Virus record (IMG/VR): IMGVR_UViG_3300042564_004473
Span: 1-54,426 of that record
Origin: a virus
Taxonomy: Duplodnaviria > Caudoviricetes
Length of the DNA: 54,426 bases
Reading direction: 5' to 3' (one strand)
Shown: positions 1 to 6,399 of the stretch, piece after piece
Layout: each line of letters starts with the position of its first letter
Position numbering within the stretch: the first letter of the stretch is position 1
The notes under the pieces: model-generated
Databases searched by the model: none
What the model was told of the DNA's origin: nothing
Seen by the model: the letters and a program-made list of their open reading frames with translations, nothing else
Made by a program: the position numbers and the translations under genes

Positions 1-268
1 CAATAGATTCCATATCGATTGAGGTGTTGCAAGTACGTTTCACCCCATTTTGAACAATGTCTTCTAATAGATGAGGTGAACAAGTTGTTTTCTCGGGTAA
101 GGTATTCTTTACCCCATTTTGAATGGCATCTTCAATTAGTTTTCCCCTTTGAAAATGTAATTTACAGGTGTTTCTCACCCCATTTTGAATGGTATCTTCA
201 ACTGAATTTAAATAATATAAAGAGTGTTTATTGGTGCGTTTAACCCCATTTTGAATGGTATCTTCAAC
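1..268. repeat. CRISPR-like array of four 36-nt repeats with unique 30-33 nt spacers, in frame within the 1..487 CDS
   Basis: Repeats at 32-67, 101-136, 167-202, 233-268 (core ACCCCATTTTGAATGGTATCTTCAAC); spacers 33, 30, 30 nt plus a probable 30-nt spacer at 2-31. Confidence 0.9.
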
Positions 269-487
269 CCATTTGGTGATATATCGTTGATTTTCAATAA
301 CATCCAACGAAAAGAAACTAAAAATAGAATTAAAAAAATTATAATTATACCATAATGTCCCATCTTTTGTTAATTCAATTACCCATTTTTTTTCATCGGT
401 AAATATTAACCAAGTGGAACCATTGTGTTGATATGTATCAACACCTTTAATGTTTTGCCCTATAAATTTAAGAATAATATTTTCCAT
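1..487 (-). CDS. Repeat protein (3'-partial): 73-aa unique N-terminus, then VEDTIQNGVKxT repeats separated by 10-11 variable residues
   Basis: Hand-translated from ATG at 487 with no stop before the window edge: MENIILKFIGQNIKGVDTYQHNGSTWLIFTDEKKWVIELTKDGTLWYNYNFF...ITKW VEDTIQNGVKRT NKHSLYYLNS VEDTIQNGVRNT CKLHFQRGKL IEDAIQNGVKNT LPEKTTCSPHL LEDIVQNGVKRT CNTSIDMESI; TATATTTG at 499-492. Not in ORF track because it has no stop in the window. Confidence 0.85.
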   Translation of the reverse strand, partial: MENIILKFIGQNIKGVDTYQHNGSTWLIFTDEKKWVIELTKDGTLWYNYNFFNSIFSFFSLDVIENQRYITKWVEDTIQNGVKRTNKHSLYYLNSVEDTIQNGVRNTCKLHFQRGKLIEDAIQNGVKNTLPEKTTCSPHLLEDIVQNGVKRTCNTSIDMESI

Positions 488-491
488 AGAG

Positions 492-499
492 CAAATATA
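492..499 (-). promoter_or_regulatory. Bacteroidota sigma-A type -7 element (TAnnTTTG)
   Basis: TATATTTG on minus strand, 4 nt before ATG at 487; same motif at 13049, 15494, 26631, 28775, 29443, 45054, 50492, 50976, 52491. Confidence 0.7.
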
Positions 500-540
500 T
501 AATTTTATTTTAAAAAAACAAAATATCGTCTAATCATATA

Positions 541-567
541 GTTTACAGTTTACAGTTTACTGTAAAC
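541..567. repeat. Short tandem plus inverted heptamer
   Basis: GTTTACA GTTTACA GTTTAC TGTAAAC between divergent genes. Confidence 0.7.
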
Positions 568-571
568 AAAC

Positions 572-579
572 ATATTTAT
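572..579 (+). promoter_or_regulatory. Phage-specific (putative late) promoter motif ATATTTAT
   Basis: Recurs just upstream of starts: 572, 2408, 3466, 4731, 7819, 19565, 27065, 30203, 31117, 33471, 47557, 52938 and on the minus strand (e.g. 19531-19524). Confidence 0.7.
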
Positions 580-583
580 AAGT

Positions 584-1105
584 ATGTTTAATTACATCTC
601 ACAAATATTAAAAAACTTTACTTCAAGTCAAAGAATTTTGGCGTTGTTAATATTAGTTACATCAATCGTAACGATAACCCTTGGACCTTCGTTCATTAAT
701 TCTAATACAAATACGTGTGATGAATTAACCATAAGACTTAAAAGTCAAGAACAACAGATTATTGAATTAAATCAGAGAGTTAACGAACTTAATTCCCAAC
801 TATTAACCGGACAAAAAGAATGTACCGATAATCTAATTTCAAAACAAAAAGAAATTATGGACATTGTTAATGGTATGATTAAAGATGCTGAGAGTTCAAA
901 TAAACAAACAATAGTTAAAACGAACGAAACTCGTAAGACGACTATGAAAATAATGGATGATGGAAATCAGTCAACAGGTGAAGTATCATCAATGATGATT
1001 AAAGAACCAGAGACTAAAGTTATTATTGTTAAGGATAACACCGAAATGATTAAAAAACTTAAAACAATGAAATGTAATATACAAAACAACTTTAAAACAA
1101 AATAG
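584..1105 (+). CDS. Membrane-anchored coiled-coil protein
   Basis: TM segment ILALLILVTSIVTITLG then heptad Q/E/L-rich region. Confidence 0.75.
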   Translation: MFNYISQILKNFTSSQRILALLILVTSIVTITLGPSFINSNTNTCDELTIRLKSQEQQIIELNQRVNELNSQLLTGQKECTDNLISKQKEIMDIVNGMIKDAESSNKQTIVKTNETRKTTMKIMDDGNQSTGEVSSMMIKEPETKVIIVKDNTEMIKKLKTMKCNIQNNFKTK

Positions 1106-1109
1106 TAGA

Positions 1110-2393
1110 ATGAAAATATTAATTAAAGAATCTCAATACAAAGTATTATTGGAACAAGGTTTTGAAATGATGGAACCATCACCAATAACTAAAGCTTATA
1201 ATGAAATTATTAGTGGTGCCAAGTATTGGATGGGAACAGATAAAACTAAAATACTTAAAGCATTTGATTATATTAAAAATGTACAAGATTTTAAAACATT
1301 GATTTCAATGTTTAAAGATAAAAGAACGGGATATGGAAGTTTTGAAGAAATGATAAACAAGGAATATGATAGGCTAGACTTTAAGGATATTATAAAACTT
1401 AAAGATAAATTATATTCAATTGGAGTTATTCTTAATTTTATTTCTGGTAAAAATATTGCTGGAAATCCAATTTTTTTAGAAGGTGTCAAAATATCCTATG
1501 TTAATAAAACACCTATTAAATCTTTACAACTAGTTCCAAAGGAGTGTAGTTCTAAATGGCAGCCTCAATTAGAGAAAGCAAAAAATTATTGGATTCAATG
1601 GTTATCAAGTCCAATCACCAAAAATAAATTTTTGAATAATTGGAAAAAGGTTGAAAAAAATATGACTTCGGCTGAAGTTGAAAATATATTTAAAAAATAT
1701 ATAGATTCGTTGAGGGTTTTAAAATTATATTATTTTGATTCTAAATTAATTCCGACAGAATCTAATTCCTACGCATTTGTTATTAAAAGTAATCCTGATA
1801 AAATTTTTGTGAATTGTTCTCAAAATGACCCAGACCCTTATGGAACTTTAATTCACGAGATACAACATCTGTTATATGAAATAAAACCATTAAATCCTGA
1901 GGTTCAAATTGCAAATGTTTTTGTGAATTCAAATACTAAAAAGTCAACAATTGAAACTTTTTTTGATTTTAAAAAAAATCCTAAACAAAAAACTTTTTCT
2001 TATGATAAAAAACTTTTTAACCCAAATGAAATAGCTAAACTTAATTCTACAAGTACACAAATTGGTGTTCCATTTGAATCTTTACAATATATATTAAATA
2101 ATTCGAAATATCACGAAAAGAGAAAACCAGGATATGCCTGTAGTGAAACTGAAAAAATGTCTAATATTATGTCGGTTAGAAATTTATTTGGTGTAAAACC
2201 TGGGCAAAATATAACTAAAGAAATGTTATTACCGTATATTAAAGAGGAAAAAAACAATGACGATGTTTCTTGGGTGTTAGCTTGTTGGGCGTTAAGAGGT
2301 TTTCCTGATTTGAGTGAAATGTTAAATAAAATAAATGACTTGGCTTACCAAAACGCAAACCAAAATAACAACAGTAGTACTCGAACGGTGTAA
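1110..2393 (+). CDS. HEXXH zinc-metallopeptidase-like protein with leader and annexin-like repeat (paralog 1)
   Basis: TLIHEIQH, downstream E (ETEKMS); WMGTDKTKI..YGSFEEMI segment; leader MKILIKESQY..LLEQ. Confidence 0.7.
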   Translation: MKILIKESQYKVLLEQGFEMMEPSPITKAYNEIISGAKYWMGTDKTKILKAFDYIKNVQDFKTLISMFKDKRTGYGSFEEMINKEYDRLDFKDIIKLKDKLYSIGVILNFISGKNIAGNPIFLEGVKISYVNKTPIKSLQLVPKECSSKWQPQLEKAKNYWIQWLSSPITKNKFLNNWKKVEKNMTSAEVENIFKKYIDSLRVLKLYYFDSKLIPTESNSYAFVIKSNPDKIFVNCSQNDPDPYGTLIHEIQHLLYEIKPLNPEVQIANVFVNSNTKKSTIETFFDFKKNPKQKTFSYDKKLFNPNEIAKLNSTSTQIGVPFESLQYILNNSKYHEKRKPGYACSETEKMSNIMSVRNLFGVKPGQNITKEMLLPYIKEEKNNDDVSWVLACWALRGFPDLSEMLNKINDLAYQNANQNNNSSTRTV

Positions 2394-2430
2394 TTTAATT
2401 TTATATTATATTTATTATTAATGAAAAAAA
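2388..2430 (+). repeat. 43-bp direct repeat (gene end, promoter, start of next gene); copies at 3446-3488 and 4711-4753
   Basis: GTGTAATTTAATTTTATATTATATTTATTATTAATGAAAAAAA identical three times. Confidence 0.9.
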
Positions 2431-2443
2431 CCAAATAAAAAAT

Positions 2444-3451
2444 ATGAAAAATTTGTTTAACAATATTTCTCAAGAAGAAAAAAATAGAATTCTTGAAATG
2501 CACTCAAGTAAAAAAAGTGTAATATCTGAACAAAAAAATCCATTTCCATTACTAACTCCTAAAACATACACACCTCATAAATATTTACAACAAGTTCCAA
2601 AGGAGTGTAGTTCTAAATGGCAACCTTTGTTAGATAAAGCTAAAAACTATTGGATTCAATGGTTATCAAGTCCAATTACCAGAATTAAATTTTTAATTAA
2701 TTGGCAAAAAGTTGAAAAAAATATGACTTTGGCTGAAGTTGGAAATATTTTTAAAAAATATATAGATTCGTTGAAGGTTTTAAAATTATATTATTATAAT
2801 TCTAAATTAATGCCGGAAAATGCGGATGCCTTTGCATTTGTTGATAAATTTGAACCTGAAAAAATTTTTGTGAATTGTTCTCAAAATGATGAAGACCCTT
2901 ATGGTACTTTAATTCACGAGATACAACATATGTTATATAACATAAAACCATTAAATCCCGATGTTCAAATTGGAAATGTTTTTGTGGATTCAAATACTAA
3001 AAAATCAACACCTAAAACTTTTTTTGATTTTAAAGAAAATCCTAAACAAAAAACTTTTTTTTATGATAAAGAACTTTTTAACCCAATTGAAATAGCTAAA
3101 CTTAATTCTACAAGTAATCAAATTGGTGTCCCATCTGAATCTTTACAAAAAATATTACGTAAAGCGAAAAATAAAGAAAAGGAAAAACCTGGATATGTCT
3201 GTAGAAAAACTGAAAAAATGTCTAATATTATGTCGGTTAGAAATTTATTTGGTGTAAAATCTGGACAAAATATAACTAAAGAAATGGTATTACCGTATAT
3301 TAAAGGAGAGAAAAAGCATACCGATGTTGATTGGATATTATATTGTTGGGCGTTAAGTGGTTTTTCTGATTTGAACGGTATGTTAAATAAAATAAATGAC
3401 TTGGCTTACCAAAAAACAAACCAAAATAACAGTAGTACTCGAACGGTGTAA
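2444..3451 (+). CDS. HEXXH metallopeptidase-like protein (paralog 2; different leader, no annexin-like part)
   Basis: TLIHEIQH; closely similar to 1110 from QQVPKECSSKW onward; leader NISQEEKNRILEMH. Confidence 0.7.
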   Translation: MKNLFNNISQEEKNRILEMHSSKKSVISEQKNPFPLLTPKTYTPHKYLQQVPKECSSKWQPLLDKAKNYWIQWLSSPITRIKFLINWQKVEKNMTLAEVGNIFKKYIDSLKVLKLYYYNSKLMPENADAFAFVDKFEPEKIFVNCSQNDEDPYGTLIHEIQHMLYNIKPLNPDVQIGNVFVDSNTKKSTPKTFFDFKENPKQKTFFYDKELFNPIEIAKLNSTSNQIGVPSESLQKILRKAKNKEKEKPGYVCRKTEKMSNIMSVRNLFGVKSGQNITKEMVLPYIKGEKKHTDVDWILYCWALSGFSDLNGMLNKINDLAYQKTNQNNSSTRTV

Positions 3452-4743: not shown

Positions 4744-5481
4744 ATGAAAAAAATGCTAATAGAATCTAATATTTCAAATTTTATAAAAGATAAATTGGGT
4801 GTCGATTTATCTGACAGGATTCATATGGTGACAAACCAATATGAGTTACCTATGGAATTCGATTGGATTATTTCGTCAAAAGCTCTAAACCAATATTTGA
4901 ACCGATATGGACCTATGTATGTTTTTGAAGGAAAAAAAAATACGTATTTGGGACAACCTAGAAAAAATAAATGGTTTGTTGTCGATAAACAAGATTATGA
5001 GGTTTCTGAATTTGATGTTATGAAAGATTTGGGTATTGAAATGCTTGGATTATCGTTAAACGATTTAGTGTCTGAATATATAAATGAAACAAATAAAAAA
5101 AGTATGAATTACGTAATAACAGAATCACAATTAGAAAGATTATCCCAAGAAATTGAGTTAGCCGATAATTTTTATGGTTCAGTTGAAGAAACCAATTTTG
5201 TTGTTGGTGACTTACTAACTGAAGCGGAATATAAAGGACGTAAAGTTAAACTTGGAAAAATAATGCAAGGAGACGTGAAGAAATTTAAAGTTTACGTTAA
5301 AAACGATAAAGGAAACGTAGTTAAAGTTAATTTTGGGTTTGGTGGTAAATCCGCTCACGGTAAACGAATGGTTATTAAGAAAAATAATCCTGCAAGAAGA
5401 AAATCTTTCAGAGCTCGTCATCATTGTGAAAATCCTGGACCTAGATGGAAAGCTCGATATTGGGCTTGTAAAACTTGGTAA
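4744..5481 (+). CDS. Phage protein with C-terminal basic DUF6321-like domain
   Basis: RKSFRARHHC..KARYWACKTW; internal second leader-like MNYVITESQL. Confidence 0.65.
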   Translation: MKKMLIESNISNFIKDKLGVDLSDRIHMVTNQYELPMEFDWIISSKALNQYLNRYGPMYVFEGKKNTYLGQPRKNKWFVVDKQDYEVSEFDVMKDLGIEMLGLSLNDLVSEYINETNKKSMNYVITESQLERLSQEIELADNFYGSVEETNFVVGDLLTEAEYKGRKVKLGKIMQGDVKKFKVYVKNDKGNVVKVNFGFGGKSAHGKRMVIKKNNPARRKSFRARHHCENPGPRWKARYWACKTW

Positions 5482-5488
5482 AAAATTT

Positions 5489-5515
5489 AAATCCCCAAAC
5501 ATAGGGGATTTTTTA
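5489..5515 (+). terminator. Intrinsic terminator
   Basis: AAATCCCC/GGGGATTT stem plus T tract. Confidence 0.75.
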
Positions 5516-5556
5516 TTTTTATCAGTATTTTTTCAGTTACTAACTATTTATTTAAG

Positions 5557-6399
5557 ATGGAAATAATTATAAATGAAAGTCAATACGGTAAAATAATTTA
5601 TGAAAATGTTAATCTAAGAGATTACTATACTGAAGATTTTGTCGAAGTTTTTTATGAAAAATTTCGTCCTTGGATTAGAATAAATCACGGGGATGAAGTA
5701 GGTAAATATCCAATGTCTTTTTTAATTAAAAAATATGCAAAAGATTTTGCCAAATCGGTGAAATACAGAGATTACATTGGAGATAATTTCACTCCGTTAA
5801 CTTTAATGGATAAATTAGGTCAACACATTGTTCTACAAGGACATATTCTTCCAACACTTAGTAAAGATTTTAAATTTACTGAAAAATATAAACTTGGTAT
5901 TGAAAAATTAGTTAATAGTTTAAACTTACCTTCGTTCGCAACAATTAGATTTGAAGAGTCGACACCCTTTAATGTCTATTGTTTTATGGATATTGATTTT
6001 TTCAAATACATTACTTCTGATTTAAATCGGGAGTCATTTACTCAGTTAGTAAATTCTAGACATATATTAGTGGATTATTTTGAAAAATTTATGGGAGTTA
6101 ATTTTGGAGACTCAATACACGGTGATTTAGAAATAGATTATAATACCCCACCAATTATGATTGGAGAAGATGAGTGGGTTCATTATTTTTTAAATAAAAA
6201 AATTAAAAAAGAAATTAAGTCACTTCCTAAGTCTCACAACTTATTTTCTGTAAAATATTCTAGAAGAGGATTCAACCCAATAATAAAATTAACTTTTAGA
6301 CGAAATACTAGATGGACTGATGAAAGCGAATTTATTAAAAACGTTAAAAATTATCTATCGGAGAATGGTTATAATTTGAATCTACTTGGAATTCATTAA
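5557..6399 (+). CDS. Hypothetical protein with INESQY leader
   Basis: 280-aa ORF, MEIIINESQY. Confidence 0.75.
   Translation: MEIIINESQYGKIIYENVNLRDYYTEDFVEVFYEKFRPWIRINHGDEVGKYPMSFLIKKYAKDFAKSVKYRDYIGDNFTPLTLMDKLGQHIVLQGHILPTLSKDFKFTEKYKLGIEKLVNSLNLPSFATIRFEESTPFNVYCFMDIDFFKYITSDLNRESFTQLVNSRHILVDYFEKFMGVNFGDSIHGDLEIDYNTPPIMIGEDEWVHYFLNKKIKKEIKSLPKSHNLFSVKYSRRGFNPIIKLTFRRNTRWTDESEFIKNVKNYLSENGYNLNLLGIH

Follow-up and report, generated by a model that had tools for sequence, protein, structure and literature searches.

A CRISPR-type repeat array read in frame, with two inserts matching a likely host, in a protein gene of an uncultured phage

Diversity-generating retroelements (DGRs) need a reverse transcriptase (RT) and a template repeat, and mutate adenines. 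Type VI-B (Cas13b) arrays of Bacteroidota, to which the locus described here is similar in geometry, have a 36-nt repeat and a 30-nt protospacer and yield a 66-nt crRNA, as given by Smargon et al. (bioRxiv 10.1101/092577). Type II-C Cas1–Cas2 are described to act in trans on such a 36-nt array, which lacks cas1, and to supply it with spacers, many of them self-derived (Hoikkala et al., 2021, PMC8092290). Huge phages carry compact cas-less CRISPR arrays, some spacers of which match host chromosomes, and it has been proposed that they use Cas proteins of the host (Al-Shayeb et al., 2020, PMC7162821). In the accessible text of the literature consulted we found no description of translated CRISPR-type arrays or of the phage family considered below.

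The window, that is, the whole analyzed stretch of 54,426 nt from a Caudoviricetes virus record, starts with an array that shares features with all these systems. Like the cas1-less VI-B arrays, it combines a 36-nt repeat of related sequence with 30-nt inserts; no cas1 or cas2 is found at its locus, a type II-C module being present in the likely host cell (cf. PMC8092290); and it has chromosomal inserts, as VI-B arrays have spacers from bacterial chromosomes as well as from phages. On the plus strand, repeat 1, compared by eye with the CRISPR-2 repeat of F. columnare (PMC5395568, Table 4), is identical at 25 of 36 positions, and at 19 of 21 in the 3′ part (binomial P 1e-6 to 3e-8). Unlike VI-B arrays, it is phage-borne, is part of a protein gene and shares its frame, is kept open and is under protein-level selection; its putative growing end is where the VI-B-like strand has its 3′ (CAAC) terminus, and no such repeat array was found in a sample of 35 genomes of the host genus. 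VI-B repeats have complementary 5′-GUUG and CAAC-3′ ends, a defined fold and a poly-U loop. Here the repeat reads GGUG...UUUU...CAAC on the plus strand and GUUG...CACC on the minus strand, that is, GUUG and CAAC are not both present on either; no stable fold is predicted, the ends being unpaired (z from –0.01 to –1.0 versus shuffles), and only the U-run of the VI-B repeat is present.

The arrays of huge phages likewise reside in large genomes, lack Cas1/Cas2/Cas4 or an effector and have spacers corresponding to bacterial chromosomal genes, but they are described as non-coding guides (PMC7162821), whereas the present one forms the 3′ portion of an ORF that reaches 813 aa in relatives, has units of a length that keeps the frame, and encodes peptides under selection. 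Phage-borne CRISPR-type repeats without cas genes are also known as RNA anti-CRISPRs (PMC10651486); those, however, are solitary non-coding repeats, and not long translated arrays with spacers. The likeness to DGRs is that phage-borne elements place new sequence in one particular region of a protein-coding gene, but RT (RVT_1, PF00078) was found in none of five records, the window and four near-complete relatives, and the variation consists of whole unrelated 30-nt units of foreign DNA (10 residues each), not of adenine-directed changes.

Layout of the array and its reading frame

As the window is the whole virus record, the array at positions 1–268 is cut by the contig end. Four direct copies of one 36-nt repeat family, with start-to-start spacing of 69, 66, and 66 nt, alternate with inserts of 30, 30, 33, and 30 nt (Table 1), and base 1 of the window fits the first base of a fifth repeat. 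This is the generic geometry of a CRISPR array (at least three near-identical direct repeats of ~23–55 nt with unique spacers of similar length). The preliminary description of this DNA had claimed four 36-nt repeats with an internal palindrome and unrelated spacers; the geometry stands, and the palindrome CCATT-TTG-AATGG is present in three of the four repeats, being degenerate in the copy at 32–67. Contigs from two public lake-water runs, covering window positions 1–419 and 1–136, extend 982 and 866 nt further, respectively. Loose ends at 233–239 are seen in DNA runs, and could be explained by array variants or other arrays of the family in the same water; the high depth over repeats in contigs of public runs reflects many arrays.

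On the minus strand, the ORF 2..487 (162 aa, open at the 3′ end) consists of 73 unique codons followed by four units of a 12-codon repeat and 10–11 further codons, which agrees with the earlier reading of the array as an open continuation of a 73-codon N-terminus, each repeat being exactly 12 codons (VEDTIQNGVKxT). Two more details of that reading are reproduced by the translation: the odd 33-nt insert makes 11 codons and keeps the frame, and differences between the repeats are mostly synonymous or conservative (the Val codons GTT/GTG/GTA, as well as AAA/AAG, CGC/CGT, AAC/AAT, and ACC/ACT, plus V/I/L and K/R changes).

Table 1. Features of the array and its gene at the start of the window.
Feature	Position (nt)	Strand	Remarks
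Promoter-like motif TATATTTG (TAnnTTTG-type)	499–492	–	4 nt before ATG; predicted from sequence reading
N-terminal domain, 73 codons	269..487	–	ATG 487–485; ORF; gene-side “leader” of the array
Repeat 1 VEDTIQNGVKRT	233..268	–	also codes for the C-terminal end of helix 67–79, the last in the folded domain
Insert 1 NKHSLYYLNS, 30 nt	203..232	–	copy of murG stop/murC start junction, reverse complement
Repeat 2 VEDTIQNGVRNT	167..202	–	sequence, repeat search, ORF
Insert 2 CKLHFQRGKL, 30 nt	137..166	–	copy of 3-oxoacid CoA-transferase subunit A gene
Repeat 3 IEDAIQNGVKNT	101..136	–	sequence, repeat search, ORF
Insert 3 LPEKTTCSPHL, 33 nt	68..100	–	source not found
Repeat 4 LEDIVQNGVKRT	32..67	–	most degenerate copy, 69% identity to reference copy
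Insert 4 CNTSIDMESI, 30 nt (2–31), plus first base of next repeat	1..31	–	source not found

Out of 91,628 host 30-mers, 55.1% are open in a fixed frame, and hence four open inserts are expected by chance in ~9% of cases; the coding case is therefore built on relatives, and not on the window alone. The sample of relatives comprised 57 distinct arrays with 621 repeats from IMG/VR phages. Units recur every 22 aa in 401 of 564 spacings, and the DNA repeat spacing is a multiple of three in 421 of 422 cases, being exactly 66 nt in 329 of them. Catalogued ORFs hold 478 of 497 DNA repeat matches in frame, most of the other 19 belonging to additional arrays, one on the minus strand of L004 and a second, duplicate one in L049. 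These ORFs, of 230–813 aa, remain open over up to 25 units, the chance of 24–25 successive open units being 6e-7 at 55.1% per unit. Insert codons contain no in-frame stops (0 of 2,910), with 4–12% stops per codon in the other five frames. Moreover, changes in the repeats are mostly at the third of the three codon positions (942/428/1647), and single changes in homologous inserts are 48 synonymous and 52 nonsynonymous, with 21.8% synonymous expected, so that the nonsynonymous/synonymous ratio of shared inserts is about 0.3. In a second sample of ten new loci chosen by the N-terminal domain alone every repeat is in frame, and no out-of-frame repeats were seen in the 79+10 loci examined. A few short members of the family in the protein collection end in frameshifted repeats.

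The array is thus coding: the repeats are in frame within one ORF and change in a protein-like manner, as in a tandem-repeat protein, and the frame-keeping, stop-free arrays with codon-position bias contradict the non-coding nature ascribed to CRISPR arrays. The suggestion that an array had been co-opted as coding sequence is hereby supported, the check that had been proposed showing repeat spacings of homologs to be multiples of three in all but one of the 422 cases and their inserts to be stop-free. Of what would have indicated plain CRISPR, out-of-frame repeats are absent at the 79+10 loci and cas genes are not found beside the arrays.

In AlphaFold2 models, residues 1–80 form a domain predicted with high confidence (pLDDT 91–97; helix, four strands, helix, helix), the last helix of which, 67–79, has its C-terminal end encoded by repeat 1, while the array part has pLDDT of 35–45 in the window protein and 30–53 in a full-length relative, where it is drawn as beta-hairpins. 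The N-terminal domain has 148 relatives in IMG/VR viral contigs, and the protein collection contains 121 short ones. The window protein matched no family of Pfam or PHROGs, the three neighboring genes matched none of Pfam, and tblastn against GenBank phages gave no match to the window protein. A structure search of the domain in BFVD returned only uncharacterized proteins of uncultured phages; likeness to solved structures was considered and rejected, the best Z of 5.0 being inside the stated noise range of that search. No neighbor gene is conserved, the best cluster covering 20 of 51 loci. Of 24 runs listed, 19 contain 50% or more of the words sampled from window 1–1500, all of them being lake-water or other metagenomes. 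A RiPP-like precursor with multiple core peptides, constant recognition parts alternating with variable cores, was also considered, and dropped because of the absence of a linked processing enzyme and because old cassettes contain insertions of 25–30 residues.

Origin and turnover of the inserts

Two of the four window inserts are exact copies of bacterial chromosomal DNA. Insert 1 has a 30/30 match in three MAG contigs and two metagenome contigs and none in viral contigs; its source is the murG/murC junction (murC, TIGR01082, 386 bits; murG, TIGR01133, 294 bits), read by the phage as the reverse complement. Insert 2 has a 30/30 match (G432:C176:4126-4155) in one of 35 same-genus genomes, a fourth genome of the genus to which the three insert-1 MAGs belong; here the source is the gene of 3-oxoacid CoA-transferase subunit A (TIGR02429, 255 bits), on the same strand but in another reading frame, and the same 30-mer with the same non-repeat flanks is also found in a contig from an RNA library. 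In both cases identity to the host ends exactly at the repeat borders, with the flanks differing outwards, and the chance expectations of the two matches are about 8e-4 and 5e-9. The flanking murG, murC, SecDF, and CoA-transferase genes argue against mis-binned phage DNA as the source of the bacterial matches, and both inserts point to one Chitinophagaceae genus as the likely host.

A gain of foreign cassettes, as had been proposed, is therefore supported by the two gene-proximal inserts, copied from chromosomal genes of one genus. The suggested search of spacers against phage and host genomes was positive for these two only: inserts 3 and 4 have no match in 401 genomes of the bacterial family or in the 35 genus genomes (insert 3, E ≤ 0.001), and for 421 inserts the longest matches to the window and to 637,900 nt of phage DNA flanking the arrays are 14–19 nt. 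About 90 inserts of other arrays have no exact match in the host genomes searched; none was found for L012 (about 36 inserts) in 401 genomes, for L060 (24 inserts) and L048 (about 24) in G001–G003, or for L017 (8 inserts) and L060 in genus genomes, and L109 gave only a gapped 92% match. The G+C content of inserts is 38–40%, compared to 30–32% in phage DNA.

We observe no Cas1 (PF01867) in the window and five near-complete relatives; together with the absence of RT noted above, this answers the question of neighboring cas1 or RT genes in the negative for the phage, cas1 being present in the likely host. A type II locus (cas9-cas1-cas2) with 24 repeats and 29–30-nt spacers is found in one insert-1-matching MAG (G003), and type II Cas1 scores above the cut-off in 6 of the 35 genus genomes. 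Spacers of G003 do not match the window or the phage loci examined over more than 17 nt, and its type II-C repeat is not significantly similar to the phage repeat, as 58 of 500 shuffles score as well. None of the 35 genus genomes contains a phage-like repeat array (10 single motif matches versus 5 control matches). Mimicry of a host array was considered and rejected, since the window array has just two weak repeat-like matches in the 401 family genomes, neither of them an array. No shared motif is obvious next to the two protospacers, nor is the F. columnare motif NNNNNTAAA seen there, and a profile search for Cas13a (NF038188) found nothing.

Synonymous sites of the repeat are fixed (GTT in 137 of 137, ACC in 132 of 137, and GGG in 124 of 137, the latter compared to 12% GGG in N-terminal domains), across phages with N-terminal domains of only about 50% identity. 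The identity of repeats to the consensus decreases with distance from the gene start, from 0.89 to 0.74, with distal repeats drifting in a protein-like way; 22 of 564 adjacent repeat pairs are identical, versus 27 of 3283 non-adjacent pairs. The first repeat equals the second in only 7 of 57 arrays, and in many relatives it is a variant, VEDTIINGVK, unlike the repeats after it. The repeats on either side of the exact insert 1 of the window, 1 and 2, have 5 differences in 36 positions, which is not expected after a very recent duplication. Cassette order is sometimes swapped, and whole-cassette loss and duplication also occur in relatives, while many inserts are stable and common to divergent phages. 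Inserts in the first quartile of arrays are shared in 53% of cases, and in other quartiles in 62–65%, hence the polarity of insert gain, proposed earlier as a check, is weak to modest.

Possible mechanism and alternative explanations

We consider these observations to be best explained, with a probability of about 0.7, by a phage gene with a translated CRISPR-type 3′ array that grows by acquisition of spacers from host DNA. In this model, positions 1–487 (minus strand) are the start of a phage protein gene, the 3′ part of which is a repeat-spacer array read in frame, and the small, well-folded N-terminal domain is predicted to take its last helix from the 36-nt repeat. As a 36-nt repeat and a 30-nt spacer make 66 nt, or 22 codons, each addition would lengthen the protein by the constant VEDTIQNGVKxT and ten new residues. 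The 30-mers added would be pieces of the chromosome of the infected bacterium, taken from either strand and in any frame, and inserted by the host Cas1–Cas2 integrase, acting in trans, at or near the gene-proximal repeat. Insertions carrying stops (about 45% of host 30-mers) or having a length that is not a multiple of three would truncate the tail and mostly be lost, open ones would persist under protein-level selection, and recombination in repeats may delete, duplicate and exchange inserts between phages. As the two putatively newest inserts are exact copies of the chromosome of a likely host, it appears that host DNA, once captured, is turned into new segments of peptide. The geometry, the coding constraint, the host origin of two inserts, the lack of cas1 and RT in the phage records searched and the type II-C module of the host genus are observed; which integrase acts, where and when it inserts, and what the variable tail does are inferred.

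Three other explanations were considered. An ordinary tandem-repeat protein, evolving by point mutation and unequal recombination only, with coincidental CRISPR geometry and bacterial matches, is already disfavoured, and we regard it as very improbable. The preliminary description had named inserts alignable to each other and stable across relatives as a sign of such a protein; inserts are not alignable to each other, but many are indeed stable and shared across divergent phages, and cassette loss, duplication and order swaps, as well as the lack of host matches for about 90 inserts of other arrays in the genomes searched, would fit it. It does not account for two repeat-bounded 30/30 matches in one genus in a non-host strand or frame, for synonymous sites of repeats fixed across phages with diverged N-terminal domains, or for the foreign composition of inserts. 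Somewhat less improbable, still with a small chance of being correct, is a decoy, where the repeat-leader junction soaks up Cas1–Cas2 integration or the repeat RNA titrates Cas proteins, translation being a by-product. Host rather than phage DNA being written in, phages devoid of cas1 (the window and five near-complete relatives), and phage-borne RNA anti-CRISPRs known to mimic repeats (PMC10651486) agree with that; however, a by-product would not keep 24–25 successive units open, a nonsynonymous/synonymous ratio of about 0.3 in retained inserts is not expected of it, and the phage repeat is not significantly similar to the one host type II-C repeat examined.

The likeliest of these alternatives, although an unlikely one, is a working guide-RNA array, with 66-nt units transcribed from either strand and loaded in a host effector, e.g., Cas13b, against host or rival-phage RNA, the ORF being secondary or of dual use. 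The match to VI-B in repeat, protospacer and crRNA length (Smargon et al.), the 25/36 identity to the Flavobacterium VI-B repeat, and host-derived spacers in cas-less huge-phage arrays (PMC7162821) are in its favor, and RNA-library contigs do hold repeats of the family, although contigs cannot show RNA ends. On the other hand, guides need neither long stop-free, frame-keeping arrays nor purifying selection on inserts, the VI-B ends are together on neither strand and the repeat RNA folds no better than shuffles, distal repeats drift as protein sequence does, and a phage-like array is missing from the 35 genus genomes.

A broader reading of the translated, host-fed array, to which we give slightly less than even odds, is that CRISPR spacer integration is used, or was tolerated and then exploited, to generate new protein sequence, with the array keeping a log of hosts of the lineage. 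If the gene ends in a repeat recognized by host Cas1–Cas2, each infection could append a random host-encoded 10-residue peptide; selection would keep useful peptides, and recombination would trade them between phages. Peptide diversification may then be what the system is for.

CRISPR arrays are regarded as non-coding DNA, and repeats in proteins are ascribed to duplication and mutation, whereas here one stretch of DNA combines CRISPR geometry and chromosome-copied inserts with an open ORF under selection. Annotation is also affected, as such loci will be mislabeled by CRISPR finders and by gene callers alike. The family is common (148 IMG/VR relatives, 19 of 24 listed runs), and the model is therefore directly testable. 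If correct, it would also provide a practical tool for host assignment of uncultured jumbo phages. Moreover, if phage genes do receive host DNA through a host integrase, proteins would have a new source of sequence besides DGRs, and phages a new way of interacting with CRISPR immunity at its adaptation stage.

Layout of the array and its reading frame

The virus record is linear (54,426 b), with a completeness estimate of 25%. Direct-repeat search at its left end yields four copies at spacings of 69, 66, and 66 nt, in agreement with the four 36-nt repeats and inserts of about 30 nt, one of them of 33 nt, claimed in the preliminary description. Window base 1 is consistent with the beginning of a fifth repeat, and this end is also covered in two public lake-water runs, whose contigs extend 866 and 982 nt beyond it, so the array, checked leftward as had been proposed, is longer than the window shows. 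The minus-strand frame said to continue from a 73-codon N-terminus through the array is indeed open; each repeat is read as 12 codons (VEDTIQNGVKxT), and the repeat-to-repeat differences, described as mostly synonymous or conservative, lie mainly in the third codon position or are conservative.

Coordinates of the array (window positions; inserts numbered outward from the gene start) and of side observations in the MAG G003
Feature	Position	Strand	Basis or remark
Repeats 1–4 (36-nt register)	233–268, 167–202, 101–136, 32–67	minus	direct-repeat search and sequence reading
Insert 1	203–232	minus	30 nt
Insert 2	137–166	minus	30 nt
Insert 3	68–100	minus	33 nt
Insert 4	2–31	minus	30 nt
Array ORF	2..487	minus	162 aa, open at its end; ATG at 487, 73 unique codons, then four units
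G003 cas/CRISPR side observations	L101 10662–11306 and 12933–14785		transposase gene; duplicated spacer

AGTTTAC occurs as three exact tandem copies (540–560) in the intergenic region that separates the array gene from its divergent neighbor, which starts at 584. Further on, tandem paralogous genes (1110–2393 and 2444–3451) both carry an HEIQH (HExxH-like) motif, and no Pfam family was found for either.

In a fixed frame, 55.1% of 91,628 30-mers drawn from the matching bacterial contigs lack a stop, so four open inserts are expected by chance in 9% of cases; hence coding is not demonstrable from the window alone and is settled by the relatives. The IMG/VR scan yielded 148 relatives, and the 79 loci examined comprise 57 distinct arrays with 621 repeats. 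The array ORFs of the relatives are 230–813 aa long with at most 25 units, and a 22-aa period is seen in 401 of 564 spacings. Independently of ORF calls, DNA repeat spacing is a multiple of three in 421 out of 422 cases (66 nt in 329). Catalogued ORFs contain 478 of the 497 DNA repeat hits in frame, the remaining 19 belonging mostly to further arrays, e.g., the minus-strand array of phage locus L004 and the duplicate array of L049. Insert codons contain no in-frame stops, compared to a per-codon stop rate of 4–12% in the remaining five frames, and 24 consecutive open units have a chance probability of 6e-7. Changes in repeats are distributed over codon positions 1, 2, and 3 as 942, 428, and 1647. 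Among homologous inserts (59 non-independent pairs differing by 1–4 nt), 48 single changes are synonymous and 52 nonsynonymous, with 21.8% expected to be synonymous, that is, a nonsynonymous-to-synonymous ratio of roughly 0.3. A second sample of 22 loci (ten of them new), for which the N-terminal domain was the only criterion, again has every repeat in frame. The array is coding, as the suggested co-option implied.

Exceptions to the frame exist. At least two of 15 short family proteins inspected in a large protein collection (P0012 and P0005) have tails consisting of out-of-frame repeats. One such tail, LKMPFKMG, corresponds to the +1 frame of the repeat; this frame then runs into TGA within GGGGTGAAA, so that a frameshift in an array leads to a stop at the next repeat. 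In L026 (4976–6222; also in L027 and L028) a frameshift inside the array leaves two ORFs that overlap in different frames, the first of 320 aa and the second of 99 aa with four repeats. One phage (L004 and L006) has array genes on opposite strands, 1938–3000 (minus) and 4961–6077 (plus), with an identical 30-nt insert common to both.

Bacterial origin of two inserts

Insert 1 is found (30/30) in species-representative genomes in three MAG contigs, two of them labeled Bacteroidetes bacterium and one Chitinophagaceae bacterium; two further contigs match in the metagenome collection, and none in the viral collection. All five matches are at the same site, where the murG stop overlaps the murC start (TIGR01133, 294 bits, and TIGR01082, 386 bits, respectively, both above cut-offs), identity stops at the repeat borders, and the strand read by the phage ORF is complementary to the murC sense strand. 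Comparison of the whole array with 35 genomes of the Chitinophagaceae genus to which these MAGs belong identified insert 2 (30/30) in a fourth genome, G432, within the 3-oxoacid CoA-transferase subunit A gene (TIGR02429, 255 bits) adjoining SecDF; here the phage uses the host-gene strand in a different reading frame. A river RNA-library contig also contains this 30-mer, again with the non-repeat flanks found in G432. Expected chance matches number about 8e-4 across the whole collection (insert 1) and about 5e-9 across the genus (insert 2). Thus two of the four window inserts, both nearest to the gene start, are exact chromosome pieces of one bacterial genus, in line with the proposed gain of 10-aa cassettes. 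The proposed spacer search succeeded for these two inserts, but not for inserts 3 and 4: neither 401 family genomes nor the 35 genus genomes gave a match to them at E ≤ 0.001; in the three insert-1 MAGs, only insert 1 matched.

No exact matches were observed for the inserts of L012 (about 36) in the 401 family genomes, of L060 (24) and L048 (about 24) in the three MAGs, or of L017 (eight) and L060 in the genus genomes. For L109 (4442–4477) the only match is to the genus genome G426 (bacterial loci L129/L130, 1501–1534), at 92% with two gaps; the G426 sequence has two copies 1.2 kb apart, and the flanking ACC and GTT match too. Phages whose arrays lack a host match may have other hosts, direct evidence of capture coming from this window. 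Runs of an identical array-specific repeat variant with random-looking inserts are seen in L109 (4211–4700, VENVIQNGVINT, five copies) and L017 (4964–5770, VEDTIQNGVKNT, nine copies); these arrays look the youngest among those seen.

Repeat turnover and candidate insertion machinery

Synonymous sites show almost no variation in the 137 repeats that encode VEDTIQNGVK exactly (GTT 137/137, CAA 137/137, ACC 132/137, GGG 124/137), even across phages with N-terminal domains only about 50% identical; the GGG share of glycine codons in these domains is 12%. Repeat identity to the consensus declines along the array, being 0.89 in its first fifth and 0.74 in its last. Identical repeat pairs are five times commoner when adjacent (22/564 vs. 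27/3283 for non-adjacent). Inserts are unrelated to one another, and their G+C is 38–40% compared to 30–32% in phage DNA, although the stop-free filter alone would lift it somewhat. Swapped and shared cassettes show that recombination occurs, and some old cassettes are common to many phages. A fast-shuffling repeat protein alone would not explain the exact host-chromosome matches; the array is more than a repeat protein. Repeats 1 and 2, flanking the exact insert 1, differ at 5 of 36 positions, the first repeat in many relatives is a variant not copied by later ones, and the first two repeats are identical in only 7 of 57 arrays; recombination in the conserved 26-nt core could account for both the mismatches and the uncopied variants.

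The suggested check for cas1 and reverse transcriptase found no Cas1 in the window or in five 98–100% complete relatives (about 300 kb) and no reverse transcriptase in five records, the latter ruling out a diversity-generating retroelement. Complete genomes have one array locus each, and there is no conserved neighbor gene, the largest cluster covering 20 of 51 loci. Among potential hosts, the protospacer-1 MAG G003 encodes cas9 (1450 aa, TIGR01865), cas1 (TIGR03639, type II class), and cas2, and has an array of 24 48-nt repeats, in which 20 spacers measure 30 nt and three 29 nt; type II Cas1 is above the cut-off in 6 of the 35 genus genomes. In this G003 locus spacers 21 and 23 are identical, and a REP-associated tyrosine transposase gene lies between cas9 and cas1.

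The window locus has the same lengths as type VI-B arrays and a similar repeat, but not their defining repeat end-pairing and fold. When compared by eye, the plus-strand window repeat agrees with the Flavobacterium columnare CRISPR-2 repeat (PMC5395568, Table 4) at 25 of 36 positions, and at 19 of 21 in the 3' part (P about 1e-6 or less). In F. columnare, Hoikkala et al. (PMC8092290) demonstrated experimentally that type II-C machinery acting in trans fills a 36-nt type VI-B array lacking cas1, many of the new spacers deriving from the bacterium's own genome. The VI-B-like repeat and this in-trans filling favor host Cas1-Cas2, which would integrate host DNA in trans at a VI-B-derived phage repeat. 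This is our best guess and has real gaps: similarity between the G003 and phage repeats is not significant, a motif search of the genus genomes revealed no phage-like array, and no clear flanking motif is common to both protospacers. The mismatches between repeats 1 and 2 and the uncopied first repeats described above also count among these gaps.

The protein and comparison with known arrays

In the AlphaFold2 model, built with 38 aligned relatives, residues 1–80 (pLDDT 91–97) form a helix, four strands, and two helices. The last predicted helix (67–79) includes VEDTIQ of the first repeat, so that the gene's own end would be the first repeat. The array part has pLDDT 35–45 in the window protein and 30–53 in a full-length relative, where it is modeled as a beta-hairpin string (E-NG-E), a weak hint only at such a tail. 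The N-terminal domain has no named family in family libraries and no match above noise in the solved-structure search. An internal duplication within this domain (WVIELTDSKTLWYNYTIELTEGKTLWYNYNFF) is seen in L019 (4952–5891). In BFVD, its fold is present in A0A6J5L9N2, L6U7, L9L5, L5X4, L5S8, L5U3, LB14, and L5T5, all labeled “uncultured Caudovirales phage”; as their accessions are neighboring, some deposited phage genomes may carry several copies of the domain.

Cas-less huge-phage arrays with host-matching spacers (PMC7162821) share all features except that they are not described as coding, and the literature searched (supplements apart) yielded no description of an in-frame, translated array. 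The observation made in the preliminary description is confirmed and its interpretation supported: a phage gene ends here in a CRISPR-type array that is translated. Inserts 1 and 2 provide direct evidence for the capture of host DNA, and, as far as substitutions in sequence tell, retained cassettes behave as selected peptides.
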